This document shows positions 1,354 through 44,854 of a DNA stretch of 64,000 nucleotides, one piece after another (positions within the stretch are counted from its first letter, which is position 1; the number at the start of each line of letters is the position of its first letter). The translations under genes and the position numbers were made by a program. Origin of the DNA: Bispira polyomma (Eukaryota); NCBI GenBank assembly GCA_965649765.1, contig OZ287748.1, positions 76,260,001 through 76,324,000 on the forward strand. The letters are read 5' to 3'. The notes beneath the pieces are model-generated. The model had not been told where the DNA came from and did no database searches. It saw nothing but the letters and a program-made list of their open reading frames with translations.

Positions 1354-1790
1354 ACAGTCCAAGGGAGAGGAAGGAAGACGATGAAAATAAAATAAGGTTT
1401 TTTAGTAAAACATATTTGAAGTTTTTATTTTAAAACACATTACTTGTTACCTTTTCCAATAACTTAACATTCACAGTTTGTTAACTTGTTATACATTTAT
1501 TGTTAAGTTTTGTTTTTGCTAAACATCAATGTTAATCCAACTGCTACACTACTTTAACATTTATTTACATAACATCAATTACATAACAACTATGACATGT
1601 TGTTAATGTTCAAGGTTACAATGGCACATTACGTCATTGTAAACATAGCTTATAATTACATATGTATGACTTACTATAAGACAATTCGTCACTTATGGTG
1701 TTATTTGTTAACCAAAAAAACTAGTAATGACTACTTGGATACCAATAAGTACCATTATGTTGAAATGTAGAGTTAAAGTTTAATAAAAGA
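1354..1790 (-). repeat. E2 terminal repeat B2
   Basis: Aligns with 2219-2548 and continues in 9321-9425 once E1 is removed. Confidence 0.88.
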
Positions 1791-2548
1791 AGGGAACACA
1801 GACGTAAAAGAACTAAAAACCTAAAACAATGGGCATGGAGGGCGGGAAAAACTTATACACCATGTAGTATTTAAAATTTACAACTGCTTTCGTATATCAG
1901 ACAAGCCATTATGTAGATCAAAAGTCACCGCACAGAAAGCCATGTACTTTAACAGCTCAGGACATCAGATATGCCTGTATTTTACTTTTGGCCAATCAGA
2001 AAGTTACACCACCTAGTGAACTTTATAAACCCTAGCTTTTAGTCTACCTTTAAGTTGCTCTTCAACTTTTGGTTGAATTTTTTGTATGTAAATCTTTTTA
2101 ATACTGTCTGGTTACATAAACTGTGGTTTAAGGCCAAATGTCATAAATTTAGAGTTTTACAAACTTCCACCCCAAGACTGACGAGGTGTGCTACTTGTTT
2201 AATTCCGCATCTCCCGAAACAGTTCAAAGGAGAAGAAGGAAGACGAAAATAAAAGTTTTTTAGTAAAACATATTTTGAGCTTTATTATTTTGAAACACAT
2301 AACTTGTTACCCTTTACAATAACTTTGCATTCACAGTTTGTTAACTTCTTATACATTTGTTGTTAAGTTTTGTTTTTGTTAAACATCAACTGCTACACGA
2401 CTTGAACATTTATTTACATAGCATTTAATTACATAATAACTATGACATGTTGTTAGTGTTTAAGGTTACAATAGCACATTATGTCATTGTAAACATAGCT
2501 TATAACTACATACGTATGACTTACTATATAAGTACTAGTATAAGACAA

Positions 2549-2758
2549 TGCTAGGTAAACCCAACGGGGTTAGTAAGTTCAGTGCTGACCATAAATTACA
2601 TTGTTAAAACTATTCTGGTTATGCTGACCTTTACTAGTGATTGGCCAGCAGTTGGCTTACTTTCTCTCACATTTGCCGCCAATTTCTACCCAACCTCACT
2701 TTAATTTAAGAACTTGAAAGGGTAGAACGCCATCTTAAAAACTTTCAAATATTTTTAC
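2549..2758 (+). repeat. E1 repeat A1 (contains CCAAT box and CGCCATCTT YY1-like motif)
   Basis: 210 bp, ~3 mismatches to 7926-8135. Confidence 0.95.
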
Positions 2759-3053
2759 ATTTGTTTTTATATTTTACATAACTCTTTATTTGTGTGTCTT
2801 TTTATGCATCTTTACATAACCGAGTCTTAATATATGTTGTAGTAAGAGGATGAGAGCTTACTGGACTGGAAATTAAAGATTGCTGGCACCTGAAATTGCT
2901 TTGACATATGCGAATTTTGCTCTTTCTTTAGGGCTATAGTTGAGGGATGTGCTTACTTGATTCGAAATTGAATACAATTTATTTACAAATTCAAAACAAC
3001 CTCAACTTAAGATACGCATATACCAAAGCATTTGTGTATATTTTACTTTCAGA

Positions 3054-4118
3054 ATGGCACCTCGGGTGAATCATGATTGTAGGGCGTGCAAAAGTAGTCA
3101 CAAAAAGCCCATTAATGACGATTGTCTATTCATGAAAAAATCTGACACTAATGAACAGAATGACACTACCAGTGCGGCTATTAACTTACGTATTTTAGAA
3201 GAATTAAAAGGTCTAAGTGGCCGCATGTCGGCAATGGAAAAACGTGTTGATCAATCTGAGTGTAGAAACAATCTTGCTAGTGCTCCAGCACATATTGTGG
3301 CCGCTGCTCCTGCAGAATTCTCGACCCCAGCCACGTTTATGCAGCCGACAGTCCAAGGTACGACTCCGGCGGCGACGGCTCAACCAGTACTCCTGCCAGT
3401 TCCAGAGACAGACGATACGCTGGTCCCCACGCTGACTACCCTAAGGACGTCAGACTACTTGCAGCAGGCGGTAGATGCTAGACTGCGCGACCTGGCTGGA
3501 CTCTCTGACAAAGGTAACTGCAAATCTCATCGAGGTTGGGCTGAAACTGTATGGGTAAAACGACAGGTGGCATGGCCACAAAATCATATTCTGGGTGGCA
3601 CAACTAAATCTCGAACAACTTATGACAGCCTTTCGATAGCCCAATGGGTCTCGGGTTTTTGCTCTATCGTTAGAGATGAGAATAATGTAGACACAAAAAA
3701 TGCAATGTTAGATTATGTTCAAGATCTAATGGAAGATTGTCACGACTTTTCGTGGGCAGCTGCAAAAGACAGCCACGCAGTGTTACTCTGTCGTATGGAG
3801 GAAGGTAAAGTTTCGTGGGATGAAACGGCTAAAATTGATCGTATTAGACGTGCTCATGCACAAAAAGTGGTCAACACTTCGGGTCACTCGATTTATCAGA
3901 GTACTAGGCAAAAAGCTAATGAAAAGGGAATTCCCTGTAAATACTTTCAAAAAGGATCCTGTCCCCACAAGACTGAACATGAAACCAAAGGTCAGACGTA
4001 TTTGCACATCTGTGCTACTTGCCTGACCTTTGGGAAAAGCTTCTCACACCCATCTAGAGACTGTCATAGGAACAAAACTAGTAAATTTGGTGAAAGTAGT
4101 GCAAAAAGCGAGTTTTAA
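3054..4118 (+). CDS. E1 Gag-like protein (ORF1)
   Basis: 354 aa. N-terminal CxxCxxxHxxPxxxxC, coiled-coil-like segment, Ala/Pro/Thr linker, C-terminal CKYFQKGSC...H...HICATC...H...C zinc-finger cluster typical of Ngaro-type gag. Confidence 0.88.
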   Translation: MAPRVNHDCRACKSSHKKPINDDCLFMKKSDTNEQNDTTSAAINLRILEELKGLSGRMSAMEKRVDQSECRNNLASAPAHIVAAAPAEFSTPATFMQPTVQGTTPAATAQPVLLPVPETDDTLVPTLTTLRTSDYLQQAVDARLRDLAGLSDKGNCKSHRGWAETVWVKRQVAWPQNHILGGTTKSRTTYDSLSIAQWVSGFCSIVRDENNVDTKNAMLDYVQDLMEDCHDFSWAAAKDSHAVLLCRMEEGKVSWDETAKIDRIRRAHAQKVVNTSGHSIYQSTRQKANEKGIPCKYFQKGSCPHKTEHETKGQTYLHICATCLTFGKSFSHPSRDCHRNKTSKFGESSAKSEF

Positions 4119-4885
4119 AAATTAATAAAAAATATTCTGCTCATATCTCCAGTACACATGTAAATGATCACAAGCAGTATTGTGCTGGTAGAACTGTATA
4201 TAATGTAAATGTTGCCAGATGGTGTAGCGACAATTGGAGAGCTGACTGGGCCAGATTTAGCAAGAAATCATATGCTCAGGTAGTAAAAGGAAATAAAAAC
4301 AATATTCAAAACAAGGTATTAAGCTTAGGTTAAGGTCAGCCCTCGAAAGGTCGCTCAAATGTACAGAAAAAGTTGTTTAAAAATGTAAAAAGAAGAAATG
4401 TAAACAACTGCAAGCAGTGGACAAAGGTTCCACAAACGGAGAACCCAAAGCCAATTGTAAAACGTCAAATACCCCATTCAAATGTAGAGAATAAGGGTCA
4501 AACTGACACCTCTAGTAAAAACAAGGGTGATGTCGACAAGGTAGTCTCTACCAAATAAGTGAGGTGTGAGGTCGTGAACAACAATGGTATTAAGCGTTAG
4601 AATAGATTTACACCCTTGCTAACATGTACTGAGACTGAAGCAATTAGTCACATCAGATTCTCAAGTTCAACAGACGATATCCCAAACAATCAGACTGGGG
4701 ACAAGTATGAACAAGAGTTACAAGTTAAAAGAAAACATAGGGATGTGGTAGCTAAAGCGGAAAACAACCCTTTGTTTCAAAAATGGAACAAGCAAAATAA
4801 ACAGAAATTTGGCTTCATTCCACTGTGAAATTTAAAACTCCCAAATGAGGTTAAGGCAAGTTCACACTCGGGTGATCCTCTTGAG
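4100..4885 (+). pseudogene. E1 pol N-terminal extension, interrupted by four in-frame stops
   Basis: ORFs 4373, 4616 and 4886 share one frame, -1 relative to gag. Motifs KSYAQVVK, NRFTPL and FGFIPL correspond to QSYSDIVK, NKFAVL and YGFTPL in E5. Confidence 0.75.
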
Positions 4886-6508
4886 TTGCACAAGTTAGTG
4901 AGAAAACAAAACTGTCCAAATTTCTTAGGAGCTCAAATAACAGTGGCTTCTCAGCTGCATGTAGAAGAATGGCAAAAACTATTGGGTGACTATTGGGATA
5001 CCCAACTGATCCATTTGCTCAAATTTGGATTTCCCTTAGATTTTAATAGAAATTTTCCCTTAGAAAACAAATGTGACAACCATAGCTCAGCTATTCAGTT
5101 TCAAGAAGACGTTGAAGCTTATCTCAAGGAGGAAAAAAATTTCGGAGCAATAATTGGGCCATTCAAAGAACCCCCTTTATCCGAACTACACGTTTCACCA
5201 TTCATGACTCGGCCTAAACCGGATGCTAAGCATAGAAGAGTTATTATTGACCTAAGTTGCCCACAGGGTCGTGCTGTAAATTCAGCCATAGATAGAGACC
5301 AATATCTTGACACTCCCTTTATACTTACATTACCCACAGTGGATGATATCACACATAATGTAATCAAATTAGGCAGAGGTACACTATTGTACAAGCTAGA
5401 TATCAGTCGCGCCTTTAGGCACGTAAAAATTGATCCAGCCGACTACGACCTGCTAGGCTTGAGATTAAATGAGTACTATATCGATACGTGTCTGCCCTTT
5501 GGCTATCTCCACAGCAGCACCATTTTTCAATGCCTCAGCGACGCTATTCGGTTTATCATGATGTCACAAGGTTATGACGTCATCAATTATATTGACGACG
5601 TCATAGGATATGGAATTTCGGCAAACATTTTCGAAGCTTTTGAGAAATTGAAAGAAATTTTTCATAAATTAGGTTTTGCTCTCAGTAACAAAAAAGTGGT
5701 TGCTCCTAGTACCAAAGTAGTATGCTTAGGCGTCCTCATCAATACTGAAGATTTTACCGTATCTATCCCAGATAGTAAACTAAATGAGATAAAACATATA
5801 TGTCAAAGTTGGACAACTAAGAAAACATGCACCAAACGACAGCTCCAGTCATTACTGGGTTCATTGTTATACATCTCAAAATGTGTCAAAACGTCACGAA
5901 CTTACCTCAATAGAATGTTGGACACCCTCAGAGGTGCTCAAAATGCTCAGAACATTAAGTTAGATATAAATTTTCACCAGGATCTTAACTGGTTTAATAC
6001 CCTTCTTACAACATTCAATGGTATGGCCTTTTTTGACCACAGACCAGTAACAGACCAGGTACATCTGGATGCATGTTTGCAGGGACTGGGTGCATGTTGT
6101 AACAATCAAATTTTTACTAAAGAAATTCCTCTTGGCTATAGAGACTACACTATCGTCCACCTGGAAATGATAAATATTTTAGTATCTATTAGGCTTTGGA
6201 AAAGTAAATGGTTGGGGAAAAAATTACTTATACACTGTGATAACCAAGCAGTTGTGTCTATCTTGAACTCAGGAAAGACTTATGATCTTACTCTCGCAGC
6301 AATGACTAGAAATATTTTCACGGAAGCTGCAAAGGCAGATATAGAAATCAGAACGGTTCATATCCTGGGTAAAAGAAACAATATAGCTGATTTACTTTCT
6401 AGATGGGCCATTACCACTGACAGGGATAGGAAATTACAGGAAATACTTCAGAATCGCACATGGTTACAGGTCCATGATGACCTTTTAGAGATAGATTGGT
6501 CTATATAG
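4886..6508 (+). CDS. E1 reverse transcriptase / RNase H
   Basis: RRVIIDLS, KLDISRAFRH, LPFG and YIDD RT motifs; DAC, HLEMIN, HCDN and NIADLLSR RNase H motifs. Confidence 0.95.
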   Translation: MHKLVRKQNCPNFLGAQITVASQLHVEEWQKLLGDYWDTQLIHLLKFGFPLDFNRNFPLENKCDNHSSAIQFQEDVEAYLKEEKNFGAIIGPFKEPPLSELHVSPFMTRPKPDAKHRRVIIDLSCPQGRAVNSAIDRDQYLDTPFILTLPTVDDITHNVIKLGRGTLLYKLDISRAFRHVKIDPADYDLLGLRLNEYYIDTCLPFGYLHSSTIFQCLSDAIRFIMMSQGYDVINYIDDVIGYGISANIFEAFEKLKEIFHKLGFALSNKKVVAPSTKVVCLGVLINTEDFTVSIPDSKLNEIKHICQSWTTKKTCTKRQLQSLLGSLLYISKCVKTSRTYLNRMLDTLRGAQNAQNIKLDINFHQDLNWFNTLLTTFNGMAFFDHRPVTDQVHLDACLQGLGACCNNQIFTKEIPLGYRDYTIVHLEMINILVSIRLWKSKWLGKKLLIHCDNQAVVSILNSGKTYDLTLAAMTRNIFTEAAKADIEIRTVHILGKRNNIADLLSRWAITTDRDRKLQEILQNRTWLQVHDDLLEIDWSI

Positions 6509-6523
6509 TTCTAACAATTTCAG

Positions 6524-7514
6524 CATCTCCTACCTGGGTCTCAAAATTGGCAGACAGAGCAGTCACTAGAGTGCATCAGGCCTTTCGTCCTTCCACACAA
6601 AAGTCCTACACAGCAATGTTTAGGGTATTTTTAGCATATTGCTGCTTTGCAAATATTTCTATATATAATATCGTTCCTTCAGTAATTCTAGCCTTTCTGG
6701 AGGTCCTAGTAGTTAACAATACCTCTCATACCTCTGTAGCAAACTATCTCTCAGCGATGAAAGCTAATATGTCACTATATGGGCTTCCGGTCACTGCTTT
6801 TGCGGATCAAAGAATTAAGTATTTTCAAAAAGCCCTTGTTTTACACAAACCTTTTAAGGCATAAATAAATGGTATCATTGACGTTGATATGTTGCAGAAA
6901 ATAGCACTGGTTTCTGATTCTATGTATATGGGGCAAGTGTACAAAGCTGCCTATCTATTAGCATTCTTTTCTTTCTTGCGAATCTCGAATCTAGTTCCCC
7001 ATTCTCAAACACATATTCCCCATTGCAGCAACTGGCTAGGGCTGATATCATTTTCGCCCAGCCAGGCGCTCACATCATAATTAAATGGACTAAAACCCTC
7101 CAGTCAAGAAACACCATTAAGGTGATAAAAATACCCACACTGAAAAATAAAATTACTTGTCCAGTGACCGCCTTCAAAGTCCTTCTTGCAATAACACCGG
7201 GTAATAAAAATTCTCCACTATTCCAAGTGAAAAACGACACTCGATGGCTAACATTAACAGACAGCAAAATTCGCAGAAATCTCAAAAATATTTTAGTTAG
7301 ACTAAACAAAGATCAAGCAAATATAACATTTCACACATTCTATCGCTCTGGGGCGACCTTAGCATTTAATGCTCATGTTCCATTACAGGACATACAAAGT
7401 CAAGGCATCTGGTCCTCTGATTGTGTGTGGCGAAATATCACTCAGGACCACTCGGCCTCTGACCAGGTTGCCCTTGCCCTACAATCCCTCCTCAACCCAC
7501 TACCTACTCCCTAG
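6524..7514 (+). pseudogene. E1 tyrosine recombinase, disabled
   Basis: FLRISNL, KWTKT, HTFYRSGA, W..DCVWRN. Stop at 6862-6864, frameshift near 7020, catalytic Tyr replaced by Asn. Confidence 0.9.
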
Positions 7515-7524
7515 TTGGGCCTTG

Positions 7525-7926
7525 GTGGTTATTGTCTCTTTTACTATAATTTAGTGCATATAAAATGTAAATATTTTATCTATTATGGCCTAGGCCAATT
7601 GAAATATGTAATTTTGTTAAGGTTAGCTTAAATTCTGTTAAACTTAAAGTCTCAACAAATATGTAAATTGCTTAAGGTTACCTTAAATTCTGGTAAACTT
7701 AAAGTTAAAATTCAATTTATGGTAACCTTAAATTTAGTCGCTTTGAAGTCACCCTTAAGGTGAACTTAGACTAACCTTAAAGTTCTAACTAAGGTGGCCT
7801 TATATCATATTCTAAATATACATTTTAACCCAGTTAACTATATGTGTAGTGATAGATTAAAAAATATGTATCCCAACTGCTGGTCTCACTCAAGGTCATC
7901 CTCTCAACCTTAGGTCAGGGCACTGT
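7525..7926 (+). repeat. E1 repeat B1
   Basis: Near-identical to 8877-9321; ends GGGCACTGT directly abutting A2. Confidence 0.93.
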
Positions 7927-8135
7927 GCTAGGTAGCCCCAACGGGGTTAGTAAGTTCAGTGCTGACCATAAATTACATTGTTAAAACTATTCTGGTTATG
8001 CTGACCTTTACTAGTGATTGGCCAGCAGTTGGCCTACTTTCTCTCACATTTGCCGCCAATTTCTACCCAACCTCACTTTAATTTAAGAACTTGAAAGGGC
8101 AGAACGCCATCTTAAAAACTTTCAAATATTTTTAC
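7926..8135 (+). repeat. E1 repeat A2
   Basis: Copy of A1. Confidence 0.95.
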
Positions 8136-8876
8136 CCCACCCTCATCCTCAACTACACCTGTAAGGGCTCTTTCTGCGTCGCACCGGGAGCAAGCTTCAA
8201 CAGGAAGGTTTCTGTCTGGTCCACTTTGCACCTCAGGCGCAGGGGCGGTGATGTACCGGGGTCAGGTCTTTGACCAGCAAGCAACATGGCTCTGCTGCAG
8301 GCGTTCATCCCTTGGTTCAGTGTGTTCCTTTCAGGCTCCTTCCTGTTCGTCTCCGCACTTATAATGGAAATTCAATGCTTCCTAGGAAGTTTCTCTTATT
8401 TTAGGAATCAGCCCTTCCAGCCGTGGTTCAACCTTTTCAGCAATTGTATGTCACTATTTTCTTGTCACATGTTGTATTTAAATAAAATTGTTGTCATATA
8501 TATCAGAATTTAGACATGGTGTTAACAGTTGTTTGTGTTAGTTTCAGTGCAAGTCGAAGAGCCTCACAATGTAAAACAAAGTAAATGGTCAAGCAAGCCT
8601 ACCAGCCAAGCAAGCCTCAAGCAATCAAGCAGCATTTACTTGATATTGTAATTGTGAACAATAAATCTTCTGACTACACATATACAAGGTGCAGGACCTA
8701 TACTTGATGTTAAGGGCTGTATTATTCAGCAAAGTAAGGCAGAGTGAGATCATGGGTGCTTTGGACTTTAAAAGACATTCGTTTACATGCATCCTGTTTG
8801 TTATTTTATTAGTTTTTAGTTTTTAGCTAGATAGTGTCTCTGTACCATTTTCTTTTAAATCTTTACTCTTGTTAAT

Positions 8877-9321
8877 GTGGTTATTATCTCTTTTACTATA
8901 ATTTAGTGCATATAAAATATTTTATCTATTATGGCCACCTTTTAGTCAAAACTTTTACTAACCTTAACTAGAGGCATGTAAGGCCTAGGCCAATTGAAAT
9001 ATGTAATTTTGTTAAGGTTAGCTTAAATTCTGTTAAACTTAAAGTCTCAACAAATATGTAAATTGCTTAAGGTTACCTTAAATTCTGGTAAACTTAAAGT
9101 CAAAATTCAATTTATGGTAACCTTTAATTTAGTCGCTTTGAAGTCACCCTTAAGGTGAACTTAGACTAACCTTAAAGTTCTAACTAAGGTGGCCTTATAT
9201 CATATTCTAAATATACATTTTAACCCAGTTAACTATATGTGTAGTGATAGATTAAAAAATATATATCCCAACTGCTGGTCTCACTCAAGGTCATCCTCTC
9301 AACCTTAGGTCAGGGCACTGT
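8877..9321 (+). repeat. E1 terminal repeat B2
   Basis: Copy of B1 with one extra block of ~45-50 bp near 8936-8982. Confidence 0.93.
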
Positions 9322-9449
9322 TACATCACTTATGGTGTTATATGTTAACCAAAAAGCTAGTAAAGACTACTTCGATACTAATAAGTACCATTATGTTGAA
9401 ATGTAGAGTTAAAGTTTAATAAAAAAGAGCAAACCCAAACATGTTATAG

Positions 9450-10411
9450 AGGTAGATCAAACATAGTAATTTTTTAAAAATTGTACGAACCACAGCAGCA
9501 GTCTTAGGGGTAGAACTAAGATACGTCCATACCACCTCACTGCGCCAATCGCCATGTTTTTTAATGTTTTGTAAGTCGATGTTGTTGTCAAAAGCAAAAG
9601 AAGCTCCGCTTCGCCTAAAAGGAAGGAAACCAAAATCTTTGGGTGACAACACAATATTGGTAAGCATTATCTTCAGAAATGACCTAGCTTTAAAGGCAAT
9701 GGAGGGTTAATACTTTGTTTAGTTTTAATCAAAAATAAAGGAGATTCATTTTCAGCTGGAATTGTTTTGATCATATTTCTTAAAGCAGTCACTGGACAAA
9801 GTATATTACCAGGTAAACTTGGCAGCTGTACTATTTGATATCGACTAGACCCAATCATATTCTTGGCACAGGTCATTACCATGTGCACACCTGGGGAACC
9901 CCATATCAAATCCGACCTAGTTGGAAACTGAGTTCTGTCAAATTCTTTAACAGCCGAAGGTACCAGAGAAGTTAGTCGGAAAACCCCCAAAAAGGCACAA
10001 AGAAATAAAGCTCTGAACGTATCAGCAAAAGCAATAATCAGTTTCTTAACCATTGTTACAGAAAGAACTCCTTTCACTTTAGGACACATGGGGCATTTAT
10101 TGTTACAGATTTAGCTACAAGAGTTACTTTTCTTGAGTACAAACAGTCCTTGTGCCACTCGAAGATTCCAAAGAAGTGACCCAGCACAAACAAGTGGTTG
10201 GTGATGGAAGCAACTTTGAGATCATTTTGTATAAGGTACTCTATGAAGCACATAACAGTTCTTGAGCAGTAAGGTATGTAGAATTGTATGAAAACCATGA
10301 AGGAGACAAACAGTCTGAAGGAGGAGTTGTAAGACATCTGTGTACAAGGTCGTAGCACCATAGAAACATGCTAAAGGGCATCACGTTCCAAGATGGCCGC
10401 CATAGTAGATG
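9450..10411 (-). pseudogene. E2 tyrosine recombinase, frameshifted
   Basis: LRPCTQMSY, FLGVFRLTSLVP, LCPVTAL, FRRSGAS and HGDWRSEVVWTY spread over three frames. Confidence 0.88.
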
Positions 10412-10699
10412 CTAAAGTATAAAATTTCACAGCAGTACCATGTTTTTTTCATGGTGCTGACCTATTAGGGTTTGGATATCATTTGTATAAATGTGTTTTT
10501 TAAAAATTTTCAAATTTTTTAAAATTTAATAGTCACGACCCAATTGGGTTACCATAGTATAACATTTTTCAAACTTATAAGTATCTGCTATTTCTAGCCA
10601 TGACCCCTTGGGGTTTCCGTAGAATAGCATTTTATATCAAAAAGTTTGCAATTACCATTTCTTCATTTGTGTTTAACCATTGACAATTTTTAAGTATTT

Positions 10700-11365
10700 C
10701 TACTTCATTTCTTTTCATACCATGGTATATATGCCATCTTGACAGAAAATCGGCTAATTTATTTTCAACACCCCTTACATGTTATACTTTGAGCTCAATG
10801 TTATAAGTGGCCAAAAAATACCAGGCAGTTCTAATACATGCCATTTGCCATGGATCACAAGCTATGCCTGTAGTAAAGGTATTGACTACTGCATAAATAT
10901 CGCACCATACTAACACTGTTGAATTTTTCCATCGGTGACACCATAATTTTAATGCAGTTAGTATATTTGCTGCTTCAGAATGAACGATAGAATGTCCATT
11001 GTGTTTTTTAAATTCTGAAATAAAATCTGTATAAACCCTTTTATCATGATATCATCCCACACTTTCCAAGCAGGCATTAACATACACCTCATAATGCACT
11101 CTTTAAGGTTTATATATTTCTATGACACCATTAAAATCGTTTAAGAAGGTATTAAACCAGTGTACATCTTTGTAGAAATGAGAGGATAAAATCATGGCCC
11201 CTCTCACAGGGACAGAACACAAAACTTGCAATATTCTGTTAATAAACATACATGCAGGACGCACACATGTATGAATATAAAGTAATTTACTAGTGAGTTT
11301 TAGAAGCTGGTTTCTGGTAGAATGTGTTTTACTTTCCCTTGTCATACATAATTTTTCATGGCACC
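10700..11365 (-). pseudogene. E2 RT connection / RNase H remnant
   Basis: KLLYIHTCVRPACMFINRIL, FYKDVHWF, VWCD, ADFLSRW. Confidence 0.82.
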
Positions 11366-11368
11366 TCT

Positions 11369-11526
11369 CAGGTCATTACCATGTGCACACCTGGGGAACC
11401 CCATATCAAATCCCCCCTAGTGGGAAACTGAGTTCTGTCAAATTCTTTAATCACCGAAGGTACCAGAGAAGCTAGTCGGAAAACCCCCAAAAGGCACAAA
11501 GAAATAAAGCTCTAAACGTATCAGCA
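11369..11526 (-). repeat. 158-bp copy of E2 YR segment 9869-10027 lying where the RT core was deleted
   Basis: Direct sequence match with few substitutions. Confidence 0.9.
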
Positions 11527-13889: not shown

Positions 13890-14400
13890 CATCCGTGTTT
13901 TTGTAAAAAAATTTGTAATTTTACATTTTTGTGGAAGGCCAGGGAGACTCCTGACCTTCTTAAACAATGAAAAGAATGTCCTATTGGTGAGATGTTACTT
14001 TGTTGCAATATTTCCTATACAATTGTCCTCAACTTTGTTTATGTTACACAATGTCCTCTGGCTTAAGGGTCTGCTTGTAATGGTGCATGTTTTGGCAAAG
14101 GATATTTGTGAAATAATGCCCTTGCTGCATTTCCTGGACATAACGATAGATTTTTTAATTTGAGTAGTTGTATTATATCGTGTTGGGTCCTTGATTCGTT
14201 GGTTTTGGACCACTTCAAAACTAAATGTATGCCAGGCTGAGCGAAAATTATATCAGACCTTGTGATGTGTCTAGTCATATCAAAAGAAGTAGCTGATTGT
14301 GGTGTAGGTTAGATTTTCTAAGAAATCCAAAATAAGCAAACAAAAATGTTGTATTGTACAATTCTGAAAAAAAAACAATGATTGGTATCGTCTTGAAACT
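13890..14400 (-). pseudogene. E3b: older YR remnant; its frame continues at 28749-28778
   Basis: LFAYFGFLRKSNL, RHITRSDIIFAQPGIHLVLKWSKT, LCPG, GHSFHCLRRSG. Confidence 0.85.
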
Positions 14401-15149
14401 ACAGTCCCTAAACTAAAGTTTTTGACCCTAAGGTCATGTACATGAAAGGTCATGAGGCTTGAAGGTATATAGTTTGTTAGTAAAGCTCTGATGCTGTTTG
14501 GGATATTTATCTATAAATTTTAATTTTTTCATCTATACAATAATTTCAAAAGTAATTTTTTTTTAAATATGCCACTATGGCAAGAGTGTATAAGTATATA
14601 CTCGTCAACATATAAAATATATCACCATGTATGTAAAACATTTGGTGAATAACTAAGAAGATACTACTTTCCTCAACATATAAACACATACACTATTAGT
14701 CTTGATATATTGGTTTTTAGCTAAGTTCTAACTATTAATCCCTTTAATTAATGTACTAGGGAGATGGGTGTGGAAAATAATATGTTGCCTCGTCAGTTTC
14801 GAGGTTAATAATGCCTTAATTCAGAAAAGGCGGCAAATTTGTTTTTTGTAACTTGCCACTGATTGGCTGACCCCAGTAAACAATTTTGTTGACAACAATT
14901 GCTGTAAAGGCTTTAATTTTAGGGACTGATACATCATGCCATTTTGTGTGCAGTGACAGTAACAGTCCCTAAACTTTTGCTAAGTTTCTGACCCTAAGGT
15001 TATGTATATGAAAGGTCATGAGTTGAAGGTATATAGTTGGTTAGTAAAGCTTTGATGCTGTTTGGGATATTTATTTACAGATTTTAATTGTTTAAATTGT
15101 TTAGTTAAATTTAAAAAACAAATTAAATATGCCAAACCCCAAAATTAAA

Positions 15150-17270: not shown

Positions 17271-17849
17271 GTCTGTCTTATCAAGTTTGTATTACACTTA
17301 GTCTAACCTTTATTGTCTATAAAGTCTACAGAACATTTTTTGTTGTCAATTTCCTCCATTAGTGTAGTAATGACAGCTCATGTGATCATTCTCTTGTATG
17401 ACGTTGTTATTATTAAGTTTATTTGTTTTTCTTATATGTGTTTGTGTACTTACATCTGTATTTTTGTTAACAGTGACCTCATTCTTATCTACTTTTTCTA
17501 AATTTGTGAGATTTTTTGTTTGTCCTTGCTCACTCAGAATTTTATTGTCACTTTTTGAACTTCACCCGTCTGTGTTTTTACACATTCTGTCAATAATGTC
17601 AATATAATATTGAGGCTTTTGTATTCGTGTACGTGTTTGTGTCTTTGATCTGTATGACGTGTGTGTATTTCTTGTGTGTTTGATTGTCTTGTGTTGTTGT
17701 ACATTCACAAACAAATCTATATCATTTTCTCTTGCTAATCGATACACCCCGTTAATGCTAGGGTCCACATTACTCACCAGGTAATACCAGGTGTCATAAC
17801 TACTCTGACAGATATATATGTCTGTAAATCTTCATTTTTATCTAGATAA

Positions 17850-20560
17850 AATCTAGATTATACTATACAGAGAATCCAATGTTTAGGACAGCACTTTTTA
17901 CCATTTCCTTATATTATTTAACTTCATTTTTCGTAGTCAATACTGTTTGGTACTATGGATGAGGACCATGTTAGAATATATAAATTATTTAATTTATTTG
18001 TTTGTTTAATGCGTTCAGTACTTTGGTCTTGTAATTACTGCATTTTTCCGTATATCTTTTCATGCTTGGATGGACAAGTAAACAAAGATATACAAGGAAA
18101 AGTATGGGTTTGAAGATAAATATGTTATATATACACCTATACTGACGGGATACCTGTAAATTCGATGTAACTTGCTCCAAGTTGTGAGAACACATGCTTT
18201 TTTACTTGGGTTTCGACCGCCAGATGGCGCCACACTACAGTGTTTTTTATTATTATAAGTATTTTAGATACTCGGTACTAGTACATAAATTTCAACTATG
18301 TGCATAGTAAAAACTGAAAAATGCTTCATTATTAGTAGGAAAGCAAGATGGATGGAAATCTCAATAGATGCACCCTTAAATGTATGTATATATCTAACCC
18401 CATATGCACATATAGTTGCTTTAATCCATCACAATTTGTTTACTTTGCGAGAGTTCCTCCAACAGCTTTCGAAACCAATACATTTGTGGCATTAAATAAT
18501 ATGTAAACAACAACAAAAAATGGCCACCGACCAAGTTAAATCACGCGAGACGGTGATTGGCTGAAAATCTGGGCTGTTTCCAATGCGTGTGAGCATTAAC
18601 TCCAGCATATCCAGTCAAAGGTCAGACCTCTCAGACGGGTTATTTGAAGCGTTAACAAAAGTACCAAGCACCAACTTCTATATAAGGAAATTAAACTGTA
18701 TATACGCCTACAAATGGGCCGTTGCATCAGTCTGCTGTATACGTAGACAGAGTTGAAGATATTTGCAAAGTATATAGATACATGAAAGAATATTTTTTTG
18801 TAGTAAGTACACAGATAGATAAACACCTGTTGATGAATCTCGTAATATACTTGTATGCCAACGTCTATATTAGGAGGAAGCAATTAACAAAACTTCCTGA
18901 ATGAGGCTTTGATCTTTGACTTTGGAACATATATTAGTGTATGATATTTGAAGGATAAGAATAAATGAAGCATAGAAATGGTGTACAACGAGGCAGGGTT
19001 ATTCAGTTAATTATATTTAAAAAAAAATGTTATATAAAACGAGTAATATATATTCTTTCATATATATAAAACTACAAATAAAACAAAAATAGAAGGATAT
19101 ATCACGGGCAATATGCAGACAGCATCGTCATTCAAATATATATTGTTTTCTCGACATACTTCCTGTGAAGTACACAGATGGATATACTTGGGGTGAAGGT
19201 CGTTGCAAAATAGTAAACAACACGTGTTGTTGCATAACATTTCTACGTTTCAACTTTTTCGAAAATTGAAGGAATAAATATACAGGTAAATACTTACTTG
19301 ATATCCCCTTCATTTTATAATACACTGTTTAATATTATTATGCTTCACTGTATATATTTTTAAGCGATTCGCCATTTTTTAAAAACCCCAAGTATATACA
19401 TATCTATTAATAAGAAAAGTACACAGATAGATATACACGTGTTATTTACTGGACAATGCTAATGGCGGAGTAATTCTGGTGACAGTATCCTTGCGTTACC
19501 GGTTTCCGATGGTGTAAGGCAATTGTCCATATTTTATGTATATCCATCCGCCTCATTATGGAAATATAGTACCAGATTAGAGGAAATACTGTTTTATTTA
19601 TTTTAAGGTATAAATTGCCGATTATTTCCATTTATCAACATATTTAAACACATTTTATTAAATACAGCTATTCCTTTCTGAATATCAAAACAGTTACTGG
19701 TTATTGACGGTGATGGTTGAATTCATCAAACGCATGTGTAAATGCATGTGATTCACGTCTATAAAAATATATATGTCAAAATAAAACGAAAGAAAATGGA
19801 TGAAAATCTAAAAAGAAGTAAGAAACAATATTTTGCCTTATATCTTCATGTTATTTCAATAATATTTCCTTATTTTGCAAATGTATAATATAACTCAGTA
19901 ACTCAAATACATACACAGATTTCAACTGGACAGAATATGTGCGTAGTTTAGAAAGTATGGTTTGGCAATTCGATTTTATTAAATACCCTTTAATTTATTT
20001 CTAATTTCGAAGTAAAAAAAGCAGGATTTCGGAACACAAGAAAGGGTAATATAACAACATAATAAACTCTTTATTATCTCAGACAAATATATACAATAAC
20101 ATTTCTAAAATTTACCTTTCATCCATTATTGCCTTCAATTTGCTTTCCAACTATCCATGTGTTCCCAATTGCGCAATATTTATTGTTATAAAGTGTCATG
20201 TGTGTGTGATCAGCGAATCAGAATCGCTGATACAGTAGCCAATGAAATCACTCCATACAAACAGACATTGACCATCAACAACCAACATGGAGTTGTAGGT
20301 AAACACTTCTGTGAGATACCAAGACATAAAAAATATGTTATGTCGCAGTTATTAATCTAAATAATGGCCTCACATTTTGACAGACGATGCAAAAGTATTT
20401 ATTCTTTCTAAAAATATTTACTTTTTTGTTAAAGGGTGAGATTTCCATTGAACTTTTGTCATAATTGTGACCAAAATATTGAAATAAAATGGTATTTGTA
20501 CTGTTTAATTAGGGTGAGCGAAAATATAAGATTTTTTTTACAAACTAGTAAGGCAATACA
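17850..20560. other. Non-coding insert splitting the E3 pol N-terminal region (boundaries approximate)
   Basis: No YR-element similarity recognised. Contains a CTCF-like motif (18217-18230), CCAAT and YY1-like motifs, and GTACACAGATRGATA three times. Confidence 0.5.
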
Positions 20561-21049
20561 ACTCAATCTTCTCTTCCACTATTTTCGTACTTTTTGACGT
20601 CTTCATCTAGATATGTTGTGACAATTGTCACTACTGTTTTCTTGTTTATATATATATATATCTTCTCTACTATCTGTATTCACTCTTGTGCCCCTCTCTT
20701 GCACATTACTGTTCATAACGCATCCTACATTCGGATCATACACACTATACATATTCATATTGTCCTTATACAATATTGATGTTTTTTATCAATTCATCAC
20801 TATTTACACCTTTATTTACACTTGTATCACCTATAGTACTATTTTTATTGTCTTCTAATTCGATAACTATATGCCCTATATCATCATATTTACTATAGTT
20901 TTTATCTAAAATAAATGTACTCTTATCTAGTACAGTTCTCGTCCATTTCTAAACAACTCATTGTCATTATCAATAGAATTTGAATTATTATGCACTCTTA
21001 CATGATGTTTTAACCTCACAGCTGTTGTCATTGTACGCAGTTCTGTCCC

Positions 21050-22006
21050 CTATTGTTGTGTACTAGTCACTGGTCTGCTATCTAGCTTATAGCACTTGGT
21101 TTTTCTCGGCCTGTTCTCATGGTCCCCTTCATCTGTGCACTGTCCTTTCTGATAGTGTCGACATGGTAAACGCGTTTTCCTCAATTACGAACTGTTATTG
21201 TGTTGGTAGTTGTTCTGGTTAGTGTATTCGAACCCATCAATGCTTGGGAGTACGATAGCCTGTTCATTGACCATATTGCCTCTGCTAACCACATCAAAAG
21301 TCCCTCTTCTATATCATGCATATTAATAGCGTATCACCTTTGGCCATTTGCCACAATATATTTGTAGCATTTCGTAGTGCGTCGCCTAGTTGCTTAAGCA
21401 TTGCTCTACTCACTGTAGGATTTAATGTCTCGAAGATGTTGTGAACCTGTCCGGTGGCGAACTGTCCCAGTGTGAGATCGTCATATGGAATGAGCTTCTT
21501 AATGCCCGAGAAGCAGCCTTCATTAGGCCAGAGAAAAATGGCATCCGTGGTATATGTATCTGTCACATTATATCTTCCCGATTTTCTTTTTAACTGTGAC
21601 TTACCATGCATCATAGCTTTAGCTGCCATCATCTCATACCTTTGTAGTCGTGCTGTGACTTCATTCTGGATCCTAGCAGACTGGCATAAAACGTCGGTGA
21701 TCGGTGTAATGACATGAAAACTCTCAGGTAACCCACCTGCCAGTTGCTGTTGTGTATACGTGAACGTGCCCGAAGTATGTTGAGTGTTATGAACGAAGCC
21801 GTTGTGAAAGCCCGTTACTGGCAGCGTTATCTGTGGAACTTGGTGAAACTGGTGAATTCCATCTAAAGCTGATTGTGGTTTCCGAGGAGCGGGTATCTGA
21901 CAGACTAGAAGACTTGCCTGTTGACTGTTGTTTTGTATACTGCTGTCAAAGTGATAAACTGGTTCACTAATTGACGGTACCTCTGCTACTTCTGTAGGAA
22001 TCTGTG
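21050..22006 (-). pseudogene. E3 gag, 3' part
   Basis: HGKSQLKRKSGRYN, WPNEG, YDDLTLGQF and PCRHYQKGQC; ends TAG at 21050-21052. Confidence 0.85.
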
Positions 22007-22690
22007 ACAGTCCAAGTTCTAAGATGTGAGGTTAATTAAGTTATGATAATTTCCAAGGGTTTGCTTAAGATGAAGTTGGATGTGAATTTTATAAGTCAGT
22101 AAAACTCTTGTATGTATATACAAGTACAGATAAGAAAGTGAAGTAGTAAAAATTTTAAAAGTTTGTTTTTTAATTTTTGACACCCATTTAGTATGGTGAC
22201 AAACAAAATACAAGTAATGCATATTATCAATATAAAGAACACTTCTACTAACAGAAGTAGAATTTTCATATAATTACATTGACATAAACAAGACACAATA
22301 ACGTTAGGTGTCCATACAAATAGTTAGGTTATCAATGAACTAAGTTACAGCTATATGTATGAACTAAGACATTTAAAAACCCTTTTTAAAAAAATTTTGG
22401 GGGACTAGCCTGACTATTAACCGATTTGACATAATGTAGAGCATAGGGTGTGTTACATATTCACCAGGCAGCGCCTGATCGAATCTTTCCCCTGACATAC
22501 TAGCATACTAGTTTCTAACACAGTACATGTCCATAAACCTGGCATAAACCTGCTATTAGAATAGACATAATTACCGCTGTACTGAGCAATAATCAAGCCA
22601 TATTGGCCATTTGTATTACATTGCCTTGTTCAGACACATTATACACACATTTTACCACAAATGTGTGATTTACATATTCACGTTACTTCT

Positions 22691-23058
22691 CATTTTAACA
22701 ATTTATAAAAATACTTGAAGAAAGCTTCTAACAATGGCGAAAACCCAAGGGTGCCCAGCTTCTCTTGAAGTCAGTCTATATTACTCTACATTCTGTAGGT
22801 GGGGAATTAACTTATAGGCTGGGAGAAAGATGTAATTAAACCTGAATAATTTAAATCGATTGAATAGTTCCGTGACTCACATGTTCAGGTTATGTTAAGT
22901 ATACTCTATTTGTTAATTCTTATTTTAACAATTTATTAAAACACTTGAAGCAAGCTTCTAACGATGGCGACAGCCCAAGGGTGCTCAGCTTCCCTTGAAG
23001 TCAGTCTATATTACTCTACATCCTGTAGGTGAGGAATTAACTTATGGATGGGGAGAAT
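22691..23058. repeat. Two ~137-bp direct repeats in the E4 A2-B2 spacer
   Basis: 22692-22828 matches 22922-23057. Confidence 0.88.
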
Positions 23059-23773
23059 ATCTATTGATGCGTCCTTACTCTTAACTTATGTGTTTCTCTA
23101 ATTTATTTCAAGGTCAAGTAATGGGTCACATGACCTTGTTGTAACAATTCAATGACTAAGATCTCTTTGGAAACTTTGAATTTATTCAAAGCAGTGTACA
23201 ACCCTGTTCCCAGAAATCACCGGCTAAGCTTATAATCACAAATATTTCTTAATGGTAAGTGTAAGTAATATATTAACCCAGAAGGAATTGAACCCCACAC
23301 CTGCGGCACCGACTCGCCCAGCCCCGGTCAGTCGCTGCGCGCAGAGCTCTGAATTCCCTTGGAAGCCACACCAAGGGCAAGTTTATGGAGGCAGGAATGG
23401 AACTTGACACGGTCAAGGCTCAACTCACCCCCAAGTCAACTATCACCTTTCTGAATTATAACTTGCTGTGATAAGGTGAGGTGGTGGTTTTTTTAAATGT
23501 CTGTGTTGTTCATTCAAATCTCGAGTTAATAATGCTACAAAATAGAGAGGAGCGGTCATGGGTGACTAAACTTGAATTTGATTGGAGGTTGTCAAATAAA
23601 CAGTAAAATAACGTTTAGTTATAACCTAAGGTTTTTAAGGCTGTATAAACTCCTGGAGTAGTCGTGTTGTGCACAGTCCAAATTCTAAGATGTGAGGTTA
23701 ATTAAGTTATGATAATTTCCAAGTGATTGCTTAAGATGAAGTTGGATGTGAATTTAATAAGTCAGTAAGACTT

Positions 23774-24144
23774 TCATTTGAGGTATTCTATTGTGAAGTT
23801 CGGGAATCTGTATTGTGTGTGTGTCAGATCTATTCTGTAAATTCTTTGCCCACTTGGTGTAATGTGTGCCCCAGGTGGTATAAATACAAGGTCTTGCCTA
23901 AGAAAATGCCTGGTAGGGTCAAGTGATGATTTTGAATGTGCTGCTATATTGGAGAGTCTTATTGGAGAGTATTCTAAAAATACCAGTACAGAATGTACAG
24001 TTACTTCATAAATGCCCACAAAATGATTTAATGCCAAGAATGTACTGAATTGTGACTTATAAGCACTGGCTGTCTTTGGTCTGATGGCAGTGTCAATCCT
24101 GCTCCAAGCTGAGGCTACAAACTTGCTGTTGAGGTTGGTGGAGC
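23774..24144 (-). pseudogene. E4 YR, internally and 3' deleted
   Basis: AIRPKTASAY, LVFLEY fused to RLSNIA, RHFLRQDLVF..PGAHI. Confidence 0.82.
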
Positions 24145-24159
24145 CTGCAATTACACAGA

Positions 24160-25740
24160 TACATTAAGATTAAAGTATTCTAGAGGAACTTGTTATTTAG
24201 CTGAATGAACTCTAGACAAAGCGTCTGCTATAATATTTTGCATACCAGGAATGTGTTCTATAGTGAGTGTAATATTAATTGATAATGCTATCAGCCACAA
24301 GTTTCTTAAACAGAGTGCCGAGAAGTTGTCTTTGGTCTTTTGAGATCCGACAACCAATACTACAGCCATATTATCAGTGTATTTTTGGTTTGCTGTGGGC
24401 CCAGTCATTTGTCCAAACTCAAAGAGCTGTTGTAATATTCAACATCTCGAGATGTGCAATATTCTGGTCTCGGTTGTAAATGTTATGTATTGGAGTTGCA
24501 TATACCTGGTCGCCCCAGACACCTCCAAAACCTGTAAGGCAAGCGTCAAGATGTAGTTTGTTTGCGTGTGATATTATGGTGGGATCAATGTATGTCACGC
24601 CATTGTAAGTAGGAAAAAATTTCAAAAACCATTGCAGATCACTTTTCATGTCACCGTTGACCTTAATACGCTTGTCAGTACTACCTCTAAATTCCATTAG
24701 AAGTCTATTTAGGTGCGTGCTAAAAAGGGATTGAAATTTGTTTTTGGAAATGAATTTTTTGTTATAAATTTCCAAGCATAGGTTCCAAATTTGGGTAATT
24801 TTTTCCTTGGTTATAGAAATAGTGCCTTCCTGTATATCAATGTCGATACCCAGACATGTCATACTGTGTGTGGAAGGAGTGAGTTTCTCGCTATTCATAG
24901 GAAGACCTAATTTGTCCAATAATTCTGTCAAAATCTCAAAACCTTGCTGAGCCTTATGTTTAGGTGCAATACATATATAATCGTCGATGTAACAAAGTAG
25001 CTTGAAACCTGAATTATTCATATAGAATGCTACTGCGTCTGAGCATCACTGAAAAGCCCTGCGTACATGGACCCAGCCAAATGGGATCGTCGGATCCAGG
25101 TACAGCTCGTTGTTTCAAGATATGCCCAATTTAATGGCTTCAGCCGGATCGACTCCAAGGTTACGAAACACGCGCGAAATGTCAATTTTGAATAAAGTCG
25201 GTTCCTGAGTACAACGAATTGCCTGTGTTATATCTTCAATGCCTGGGAATTTCAATTTAAATTGTACCCTGTCAAACAGTGCTTTATTGACATTATCATT
25301 TAACAAATCGCCCTGTGGATATGAGAGATTCAAGATTACTTGTCTTTTATCAACGTCTTTAAGACGGGTTAACAATGGAGAGCAGTGTAATTGTGTAGAG
25401 TTAATGGCTGTGACTGGGCCCAGCATTGCTCCATTTTCTTTGTCAAGATATTGACCAACTGCCTTAGTGTATTGTAAAGCAGAGAAATGATTTTTTATTT
25501 TTACATCTCTAAGTTGTCAGGATTAGTAAGACTCAAGGGAAAACCAAATTTCAGGATAATCAGAAATAATGTTTTCCCAAGCACTTGGGTTCAAACCTGA
25601 AATGATTAGAAATCTGGTTTTTTTGTAGTTCGGAAGTTCAGTGTCACTAACCAGCTTGCCAATTTCAATCATTTTTTTAGTTTATTTCTACTATTTTTCG
25701 CAGGCCAAACGTCTACTGAATGTGACTGCACAATTAAGGT
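24160..25740 (-). pseudogene. E4 RT/RNase H
   Basis: KRQVILNLS, KIDISRVFRNL, YIDD, HLDAC, HLEMLN and NIIADALSR across broken frames. Confidence 0.9.
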
Positions 25741-26513
25741 ATCAATAACATTTTCCATATAGGATGTATAGTTACAATTATATTGGACAGAGGACTACAG
25801 ATCCCTTTTGTAATAGTAATAACTGTTTTGAGATTTTTTCATATTACCATGAGAATAGTTACCAACACTGAGTTGAATTTTTCCCACTATACTGTTGTCC
25901 AACCAGATTTCTGCTTCGTACCTATCTATGATCTGCAGTTCGCCTGTGGAAGAATTAACAGTGGGGGAATATATGATGCAATTATATGTATCACAATGGC
26001 AGAGACAGTAAAAGCCCTTACTGAATTGTTCATTCTCACTACAAATATAAGCTACTGGGGCCATGACTCCCCCATAATCAGATACTTCAGAGAAATTTGT
26101 AACAGATATTTGAACTTTGATAGTTTGGTTAGTATAATTATCGTGTCCCTGCCAGAGTGCACTACTATTGTCAGTAGTGTATGCACTTGGTGACACAATC
26201 AAAGACTTTTATACCTGAAATGATTGCAGATCTAGAAACAATATTTTCCATTTTCCCCGTTGAACATTTTTTTTTGTTTTAACATCTACTATATTTCCAT
26301 TAATTATTTTATCAGTATTATAATGACCACCTGATATGTTCTTAACTACCTGAATGTGGACATTGTTGGCAATGTTGGAATTGGTCGTGGCCTTGTAATT
26401 GTTATCACATTCCTTAACAAGAATATATTTTTTTCACTATTCACATGAGTTATATTATTTATCTGTTTAACTTTATACACTTCCGATTTGCTGATTGGCT
26501 GACGGTGTTGTCC

Positions 26514-27925
26514 CTAGCGATTGTTTGACTGTTCTGGGTTTTTATTCAAATTGGACTGAAATTTAAAACACTTGAATTCGGGATGCACTGCATCCTTGCC
26601 AAGTTTCTTCGAACAATGCCAACAAATGAGCCTATGATTAGCATGGTCAGTTTTATGAGGACATTTCCCATTATTGCACAACTTGCAGATCGTCTTAAAT
26701 TCATTTTGTTTCCCTTTATTCAGATCACTATTACCATTATTACTATTATTGCTCACTTGTGCCATTTGAGATGCACTTCTGATGCAAATCAGTTCAAAGC
26801 CCACTGAGTTTGGTTGTCCCATGTAAATCGCCCTTCTTCTATATCCTGCATGCTGTGCCCCCAGGCGGTACGTACGACTGGCCAGGGGAGAGCTGCCGCT
26901 TCTCTGAGTGTATGGACTACCTGCTCAATCATGCCTTTCATCAAAGCAGGATCTGCTACTAGGAGGGCGTTGTTGAGCTGGCCAGCTGCCCATTGCGCCA
27001 TAGACAAGTCGTCAAAAGTGGGTTTCCAATTTGTGTTCGCACCTACCCACCCCTCATTCGACCATCAAAATTTGGGGTCTGCTGTAGAAATGTCAGAACT
27101 GTTATAACGCCCAGACTTTTGTTTTACTGGAGCCTTACCTTGGAGAATATCTCTTTGGATATTGGTCGCATATCCCGCTAGTTGCTTGGCTATGGCAGCC
27201 TGTATGGCTGGTATCGCCGAAGAGTGTCCAGTTGTGGAACCACGCCGTACTTAGAAAATTCCTGTTGAATCATAGGTTGTGCAGTTGGACCTGGATTTAT
27301 CGACCAAGTAGAACCTAGAGAAGCTGGAGCCGCCGACGTGGTGTATTCTCGTGGTGTGTGCTACGGCCTAGGAGGTAACGCTTGCTGGGTCTAAGTCGTT
27401 TCAACCCTGCTAATTCGCTGACTACATTCTGTGTTTGATGTTTCTAGTCTCCTTAGTATAGCCAGCATCTCTGAGGAGCTGTCGGTGCCTGAAGTCATGC
27501 TCGGCAGGGGTTGTTGGCCCACCATGAGTGGTTGAGTCAAGGGCCGACAGGGCTTGGAATTGTGATGGTGTGATCCCGGCACAAGCAGTGTCTCTGTCTG
27601 CAGTTTGGTAACCCAGCGTATGGGAAAGTAGTGACGCGGTGTTAGTGTTGGTAGGCGCACATGGAAGTGTAGCCTGAATATAAGCAGCCCCAGAGTTGGT
27701 AGTGGACGCGGACATGAATTCTGAAGAAAGTTCAATAAGTCTAGACGCTAAAGCAGTTAACTGTGCTTGAACCTCGGATACTATAAAGTCTGATACCTGC
27801 TGACATCCCTTACTGAGGTCTTTTGGGATCCCTGTAGTTTTCTTCATCCTCTCCTTTGTTGACCTAGTAATGGATGTTTTCTTAATAGTTTTGCGCATTT
27901 TTCTCTTATGTATCACACTATACAT
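26514..27925 (-). pseudogene. E4 gag (frameshifted)
   Basis: QGKAPVKQKSGRYN, MSMAQWAAGQL and ICKLCNNGKCPHKTDH...ICWHC...H...C. Confidence 0.85.
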
Positions 27926-28128
27926 AATAAACTGGATGTATAATACTTAATTAAGTTAATAATTCTACAAAATGGAGGAGAACAGTCATGGGTGACTAAA
28001 CTTGAATTTTATTGGAGGTTGTCAAATAAACAGTAAAATAAAGGTTAGGCATAACCTAAGGTTTTTAAGGTTGTATAAATCTTATGTTGGATTGAACTAA
28101 CAGACCCCTAGAGTAGTCGTGTTGTGCA

Positions 28129-28400
28129 TACATTCAGCGTTTCCCTCTGCCTCATTTCAGATACATCCTTCTCTAATCATGAAACCATTTTAAGTATAGT
28201 GTCCATCATTACTTGTTGTCGTTCACACAACAGCTAATATGAATTATCTGTGGCACTCACCGTCTGTGACACGTCCATCTCTGTTGCTGAGTGTTCTGTT
28301 TCTATGTCGCCTTCACTTGTATTTTCTTCTACATTCCTTCTGCATTGATTTCCCACAGGTCTCTCGTGTTTCGTCTGACACTTAGAGCACTCCACTTGAA
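28129..28400 (-). pseudogene. E3 gag, 5' part
   Basis: VECSKCQTKHERPVGNQC matches the N-terminal motif of E1 and E5 gag; in frame with the 3' part after removing E4. Confidence 0.85.
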
Positions 28401-29039
28401 CTGTAGTTACTGTCTTACACCTCCCCGTTTTCCGTGTATAATGTTCTTTTTATTGTTTTATATGTATCCTTTTTTAATAAAACACAGTATATTCAAACTG
28501 AAAGACTAAAACTTGTAAAATAAAATAAAGACCCATAAATTTCCAGTTTGGCCTGGTTTGCTTTTAAAAATCACTTGTTGCCTCGTCAGTTTCGAGGTTA
28601 ATAACGCCTTAATTTAGAAAAGGCAGCAAATTTTTTTTCTGTAACTTGTCACTCATTGGCTGACCCCAGTAAACAATTTTATTGACAACAATTACTGTAA
28701 AGGCTTTTATTTTAGGGACTGATACATCATGCCATTTTATGTGCAGTAATATGCAATTGTTGCAAATCAAAAAAGCCTCAGAATACGACCCAAATAACCA
28801 GCAAATGTATATCCTGGTCGGGGTTCAATAACTGTAATATATTTAATTTTAGTGACTGAGGGGTCATGCCACTATTCTTGGCAGTGACTGACAAACCTGA
28901 TCTGCTTAAGTTGGTATAAAGTATAATCTTATATTTCCTAAGATTATATACATACACAATAAGGTACCTGTACCACATACCTGGCTCTCAGTGATGGCAT
29001 TAAAATTTATATTATGATGTCAGGCTTCCCATGCAACCT

Positions 29040-44826: not shown

Positions 44827-44854
44827 ACTTTTGTTATAAAATATGTAATTTCAG

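Follow-up and report, generated by a model that had tools for sequence, protein, structure and literature searches.

The window analysed here, a stretch of 64,000 bases from the 1.04 Gb genome of Bispira polyomma (G000:C1:76260001-76324000), contains five retrotransposons, E1 to E5, which as a set have split direct repeats along with reverse transcriptase (RT), RNase H and tyrosine recombinase (YR) domains. Delimited by self-comparison and translation and placed by layout and domains, they are ordinary Ngaro retrotransposons, with the order A1-body-B1-A2-B2. Their insertions follow a simple rule: the element runs from T to ACTG, the target is W-N|W (W being A or T, the bar marking the cut), no homology between element and target is needed, and no footprint is left. 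The joint between the B end and the A start is moreover predicted to fold into a hairpin whose outer stem ends at the crossover. From these comparisons of sequence we suggest, with a probability of roughly 0.55, that integration would proceed by one-strand exchange between a folded sense-strand B|A junction and a duplex target loosely marked by A/T, in an integron-like manner.

The genome was searched with the five junctions or ends, and 60 longer stretches were fetched for a first set, which comprised 90 flanks on each side and 54 junctions once 16 duplicates and 11 ends with decay at their termini had been excluded; one end (the A1 of E3) was placed by hand. A second set, taken from 80 of 150 YR hits chosen from the more distant rows, gave 56 left flanks, 67 right flanks and 28 junctions, after exclusion of 11 + 3 ends and the re-filing of one false junction as an end; its junctions were first located by self-alignment, with the motif unused. 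Pooled, the sample holds 146 left flanks, 157 right flanks and 113 two-ended insertions (62 + 51). Each search covered its best 40-150 hits, and the sample leans to well-kept copies.

The position of the crossover is nearly constant. The junction reads ACTG|T in 52/54 cases in the first set and 27/28 in the second (79/82 in all), and ACTGT lies at the joint in each of the 17 junctions located by motif-free self-alignment. An earlier note on this window had listed five B-end motifs, the sequences flanking the elements and internal B1/A2 joints, all of which are present as it gave them; the joints lie at 7925|7926 in E1, 2220|2219 in E2 (decayed), 14963|14962 in E3 and 23674|23673 in E4. The note had, however, counted the final T of ACTGT to B. 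As the base after the terminal B varies (T 81, A 56, C 10, G 10; n=157), this T belongs to A.

On the target side, the strongest signal is two bases left of the cut, where A/T is found in 142/146 flanks (T 104, A 38, C 1, G 3); by set, T accounts for 72/90 in the first, and T for 32 and A for 23 of 56 in the second. Position +1 is A/T in 137/157 right flanks, and A/T occurs at both -2 and +1 in 96/113 pairs against 49.7 expected. Between them, position -1 is open (A 30, C 20, G 46, T 50; n=146, with an A background of 33%), with a weak preference for G. Weaker signals are A at -4 (70/146) and A/T at +8 (123/157) and +9 (129/157). Identity with the element's own junction plays no comparable part: at 35/113 sites no base is shared on either side of the cut, and identity over +2..+7 is at chance level (164/678 versus 170 expected). 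A fixed TG core was also considered as a requirement and rejected, since two or more bases left of the cut are shared in only 19/62 first-set pairs.

These counts decide against the rule proposed in the earlier note, that an ACTGT junction recombines with an AT target through one obligatory shared T. That rule does fit E1, E3, E4 and, by way of its paralog, E2 (whose target is known by inference only, the 5' end being lost and the paralog about 80% alike), and T is indeed the commonest base at +1 (81/157 flanks; 65/113 pairs against 37 expected). But the A|T dinucleotide occurs in 14/113 pairs against 12.4 expected, T is absent from +1 in 48/113, E5 in the same window, which the note had left unresolved, lies at G|T, and a site that shares no base with its junction has empty copies that are 98-100% identical. 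As a requirement, the AT target with its shared T is thus refuted by the flanks, as an account of the mechanism it is scarcely credible, and the four A|T cases seen in the window are a small-sample run. The genome-wide flank count, set beforehand as the check on the rule, bore out the absence of target site duplications (TSDs) and of longer homology while the dinucleotide proved not to be AT. That little identity is needed was correctly seen; that this would be unusual for a tyrosine recombinase was not, given the precedents of Tn1549/Tn916 Int and the integron integrase.

The earlier note was also right that insertion is base-precise at the B|A junction, with no TSD and no base lost. Uninterrupted relatives were found for 32 sites in the DNA examined, and the best relative aligns ungapped within 6 bases of the cut at 26/32 sites, and in 10/10 cases at >=85% identity. 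The B repeat of E2, into which E1 is inserted, can be compared with 19 uninterrupted E2-family copies, 18 of which align ungapped within 6 bases of the cut. At G000:C3:10327317, where no base is shared at the cut, the tandem empty copies of 98-100% identity are ungapped in 4/4 cases. Across the paired sites, flank repeats match the shuffled expectation and a TSD is therefore rejected, two sites excepted; these carry flank repeats of 5 and 4 bases (L013/L017, G000:C2:18411400-18417861, and L081, G000:C1:10984676). Once E4 is removed, its flanks continue the E3 gag in a single phase and are colinear with the protein of a relative (residue 107 followed by 108, from the ends of the high-scoring segment pairs), as had been claimed. 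For E3, the corresponding claim holds in that relatives of the E3b recombinase can be followed codon by codon across its two flanks, a comparison that extends over about 11 codons on the 5' side and was judged by eye. Three public contig sets over E5 contain no empty allele; their contigs cross the left junction and are uninformative on polymorphism or circles.

The earlier note missed a complementarity common to the five families, in which the B end can pair with an arm located some 30-37 bases into A. In E1 the predicted hairpin occupies 7913..7967 on the + strand (-13.8 kcal/mol, z -3.1, with covariation): the B end pairs with the inverted arm at 7957-7967, interrupted by a 2-nt bulge, the outer stem stops at the crossover 7925|7926, and a T.T mismatch and an inner stem complete the structure. 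The sense-strand fold has z values of -3.1, -5.3, -2.9 and -3.3 in four families. Two copies in the window give no fold: the junction of E2 is decayed, and in the A2 of E4 the inverted arm has been lost through deletion. Ranked by z against the other windows of its element, the junction window leads in three of the four elements scanned and comes fifth of 90 in the remaining one; no other of the 89 windows of E1 is as stable. Of 30 junction clusters, z is -2 or lower in 18; ACTG is paired and +1 unpaired in 20, and the sense strand gives the more stable fold in 24.

Alignment of 17 junctions gives a consistent predicted layout: above a basal stem and the 2-nt bulge, 6 bp of stem run up to the cut, followed by 7 nt of spacer that stay mostly unpaired and, from +8, by the inner stem. 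RNAalifold arrives at the same fold unprompted. In this alignment 92.7% of cells are paired and 11/17 pairs show two-sided changes; 0/500 shuffles score as high, and partners slid out of register reach at most 41.5%. The T.T mismatch at +1 is present in 17/17 aligned junctions, and the ACTG/CAGT pairs are near-invariant in sequence. A similar arrangement is seen in a distant family from metagenomes (40 loci fetched; one family usable, with 10 loci and 7 junctions). Its YR is about 40% identical and its junction differs in sequence (AATT|T), but the stem ends at the cut in 6/7 junctions; the family keeps A at -4 and T at -2, the two positions that are echoed in the target flanks counted above. 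The L329 repeat, with a putative junction only, shows no fold of this kind.

How might such a junction be used? Under the reading that we prefer, the folded sense strand would present two stems that serve as two recombinase half-sites. Cleavage would leave the tyrosine on the G, and the freed T would join the target; the second strand would not be exchanged, and replication or repair would resolve the product. A folded junction with a single cut, placed where the outer stem stops, would account for the uniform ends of the elements, for the lack of spacer homology and for the second A/T signal at +8/+9. A linear cDNA could, in addition, have its two ends bridged by the inverted arm of A, and ends held together in this way would explain the use of the terminal junction only. 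More tentatively, Ngaro elements may be a eukaryotic, self-encoded counterpart of integron cassettes, in which the inverted arm makes an attC-like fold of the element's ends and one strand is swapped into almost any A/T-marked duplex, completion being left to replication or repair by the host.

Several points weigh against one-strand exchange. Twelve of the 30 clusters have z above -2 and 10/30 lack the exact layout, several of these being visibly decayed copies. The covariation was measured on 17 related sequences from which the structure itself was drawn, and its value is not a probability. In the same set G.T pairs outnumber A.C pairs 33 to 4; this excess points to selection on the sense strand, as DNA or as RNA, and as a sense-strand fold is also present in RNA it may act there; the single-stranded cDNA of DIRS-1 is mainly antisense. 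For the metagenome family the folds fall short of significance (z -1.1 to +0.8). A depletion of A at +11, strong in the first set (9/90), did not recur in the second (17/67). Left flanks end in ACTG in 8/146 cases against 3.1 expected, a hint that identity on the left side helps, and flank repeats of 4-5 nt occur at 2/113 sites against about 0.8 in shuffles. No integron integrase (IntI) is among the structure matches listed for the YR model, whose fold is Cre/Xer-like. Finally, the single crossover position in all 113 pairs fits single-strand cleavage, but biased repair of a two-strand product could leave the same single crossover.

That last point belongs to an account in which the substrate is a double-stranded circle, as for Tn916 and Tn1549. 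The YR would melt a 6-7 bp spacer and exchange both strands without homology, repair would keep one outcome, and the inverted arm would be an accessory binding site or a cruciform. We consider this improbable, despite the Cre/Xer-like fold predicted for the YR and although a duplex circle is what the published model for DIRS-type elements assumes (in the available parts of PMC3266345 and PMC7192593). The targets also have a weak dyad (A/T at -2 and at +8/+9), and their preference for T at +1 resembles the single T:A pair described for Tn1549 in the accessible text of PMC5871717. Two exchanges across unmatched spacers should, however, yield some elements whose A is short of its first 6-7 bases, these standing behind B instead, and none of the 113 pairs is a clean product of this kind: compared with the first 7 bases of its own A, the right flank matches at 0-4 positions in 111 pairs and at 5-6 in two, in a distribution that centres on 2. 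Two 5' ends that lack about 7 bases have no matching scar pair: at one of them the right flank matches neither prediction, and the other may be a short repeat with a mismatch or a small deletion. As a duplex circle carries two identical junctions, permuted copies are likewise expected, but body-leading A ends follow a B end in 0/28 and 0/59 cases, compared with 38 (23 + 15) standard full-length copies. Bulged, G.T-rich and covarying complementarity over some 55 nt would furthermore be superfluous for duplex sites.

One-strand exchange has also to be set against the possibility that the hairpin acts in RNA or during reverse transcription, in end definition, template switching or packaging, while linear cDNA ends or an unfolded site integrate. 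In the standard model B1|A2 lies in the transcribed part, and both the sense-strand bias of the clusters and the many G.U-type pairs would suit such a role. Harder to reconcile with it are the exact coincidence of stem end and crossover in two groups of unrelated sequence and the start of the inner stem at +8, which coincides with the second A/T signal of the targets; the near-invariance of the ACTG/CAGT pairs is what would be expected of a protein site. We regard this possibility as unlikely too, on a par with the duplex circle.

Two candidates for permuted elements were examined and set aside: L318 is a nested insertion, and C14 is an internal junction with an enlarged spacer. At L203 (G000:C10:23332725), an E4-family copy, the first 6-7 bases of A are missing and their replacement resembles the right flank with one mismatch. 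This may be a rare two-strand product or a small deletion.

The assignment to Ngaro is based on several features. The A1-ORFs-B1-A2-B2 order (ORF, open reading frame) is seen in E1, E3 and E4, and an internal junction is present in 23/62 paired copies of the first set and 15/51 of the second genome-wide. A profile scan matched RVT_1 (E 2e-12) and RVT_3 (E 1e-7), together with Phage_integrase at E 2e-5 and 24.7 bits, below the cut-off of 27.1; gag has no Pfam match and is named from its position and its Cys/His end. The RT/RNase H frame closes shortly beyond RNase H, in overlap with the YR frame or directly adjoining it. DNA adenine methyltransferase (Dam) was not found in the two RT/RNase H frames scanned, and it is solely by this missing methyltransferase that a PAT-like identity is disfavoured. 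A DIRS1-like identity was rejected: the repeats are direct, with no inverted terminal repeats (ITRs) or internal complementary region (ICR), the ends are T... and ...ACTG, and the flanks vary. The predicted structure of the YR (pLDDT, the predicted local distance difference test score, 71) has its best matches in Cre/Tre, XerA/D/H, lambda Int and Tn1549 Int, and searches of PDB sequences with the YR and with its profile gave no match. The likeness to integrons is accordingly offered as one of working only, no IntI being among the matches listed for the modelled YR.

In the window, E1 (2549..9320, + strand) is a full element with complete layout, inserted in the B1 repeat of E2. It comprises A1 (2549-2758), gag (~2961-4118), RT/RNase H (4829-6508), a broken YR (~6481-7514), B1 (7584-7925), A2 (7926-8135), a spacer and B2 (8979-9320). 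E2 (1355..11526, - strand) is decayed and has lost its 5' end; its B1 is split by E1, an RT/RNase H piece lies at 11357-10653 and a YR piece at 10092-9509, and its B2 ends at 1355. The DNA around E2 (3-1354 and 11848-13616) has a paralog 50 kb away (50155-52661). Some 350 bases beside the missing 5' end are absent on the E2 side of this paralog pair, which suggests that one deletion removed the start of the element together with its flank.

Also decayed is E3 (14402..28749, - strand), with its A1 start at 28749, a junction hairpin at 14963|14962 (z -4.8), the B2 end at 14402 and E4 in its gag. Its target, E3b (13799..14401, - strand), is the 3' part of an older YR gene, about 11 codons of whose 5' side lie just above 28749. 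E4 (22008..28128, - strand) is a decayed element within the E3 gag; its body includes an extra stretch with open frames (~25738-26208, within 25738-27946) that resembles neither gag, RT nor YR. Three of the five elements (in 1354-28749) thus sit in other Ngaro copies, and the genome has thousands of YR matches. E5 (41962..46402, + strand) is an A-body-B monomer without A2 and B2, flanked by TTTTG on the left and TGAG on the right; its RT/RNase H lies in two frames (43373-44826) and its YR frame (44827-45840) has the R-K-HxxR-H-Y motifs. At 49576-49729, 3.3 kb downstream of E5, is a 154-base piece of its B repeat, 98.7% identical and lacking the last 20 bases. Outside the elements, 30602-40575 and 53360-63830 are two tandem copies of a host gene, about 82% alike, whose exons suggest a possible Cys-loop ligand-gated channel.

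Shortened forms are frequent in the sample. In the E5 clade (loci L241-L320 and the E5-family) A-body-B monomers make up 36/51 pairs against 15 full elements, and A-spacer-B units are common in the E2 family (7/10 pairs), where the label A-body-B is uncertain and the middles of copies lie beyond the fetched DNA. Recombination between repeats or direct insertion of a smaller circle would give the same monomer form. Tandem A-spacer-B units with two successive junctions occur at L264 and at L066/L071 (G000:C7:13375291-13376485).

For the integration of tyrosine-recombinase retrotransposons, the working model demands identity between junction and target, whereas the profile counted here shows that none is required; a concrete substrate can also be named, a predicted fold of 55 nt with a known cut point. 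If one-strand exchange is correct, a bacterial integron mechanism operates in animal genomes. If Ngaro elements are indeed the counterpart of integron cassettes, neither a duplex circle nor homology is needed, the textbook model for the group would be replaced, and their recombinase would be a near sequence-independent, scar-free integrase. Should the one-strand model prove false, the corrected rule still says where elements begin and end (T...ACTG), which serves to annotate a large family, with 11,140 YR candidates in this genome at first look. A full-text literature search found no Ngaro target profile or junction fold, although it did not extend to the founding Ngaro paper, a 2015 review or supplements, so that an earlier mention is possible; none is given either in the portions of PMC6681497 and PMC13465315 that were available.

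The existence of single-stranded DIRS-1 cDNA is reported in a 2020 paper according to which the specificity of the DIRS-1 YR had not been examined experimentally (PMC7192593, in the part accessible to us). As far as the available text of PMC3266345 and PMC7192593 goes, the model for DIRS1-like elements is recombination of a 3-bp junction with an identical 3-bp target, leaving the same trinucleotide at both ends. The elements described here share with it YR-mediated insertion at the end-to-start junction and the lack of a TSD, but 35/113 of their sites share no base at the cut and their repeats are direct rather than ITR/ICR. Within the order DIRS, the Ngaro layout A1-ORFs-B1-A2-B2 is documented for Cafeteria Ngaro1-4 and Xenopus DIRS-53_XT (accessible parts of PMC8547959, PMC9210276 and PMC3783388), and our elements agree with it in split direct repeats, gag, RT/RNase H, YR, no methyltransferase match, no TSD and solo A-B units; these same parts give no target rule or junction fold. 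The lack of a TSD is already in print (PMC4157794, seen in extract).

Further afield, the Int of Tn916/Tn1549 offers the same bypass of spacer homology, A/T-rich targets and a T at the ligation site, where one T:A pair can suffice (PMC5871717, in the sections available). There a duplex circle is used, both strands are exchanged and the ends are heteroduplex, whereas Ngaro ends are uniform and the +1 T is replaced in 76/157 flanks. The integron integrase, to judge from the accessible text of bioRxiv 2022.09.11.507474, inserts at a GWT motif by one cleavage, and homogeneity of sequence at the insertion point was there taken as evidence for single cleavage at attG. Integrons are bacterial, the G and T of their motif are fixed and their integrase acts in trans on cassettes, while the matches listed for the Ngaro YR model include Cre/Xer and no IntI, and the Ngaro bulge lies in the outer stem, unlike that of attC. 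In attC x attG recombination one strand is cleaved and replication resolves the product, and a comparable use of a single strand would be our reading of Ngaro. The attC site is made up of two boxes with an unpaired spacer, and some of its bases are extrahelical (PMC11641012, in the part available, which also describes resolution by replication); both systems have a hairpin of two stems, in Ngaro a predicted one, with an unpaired spacer, extrahelical bases and a tiny target motif.

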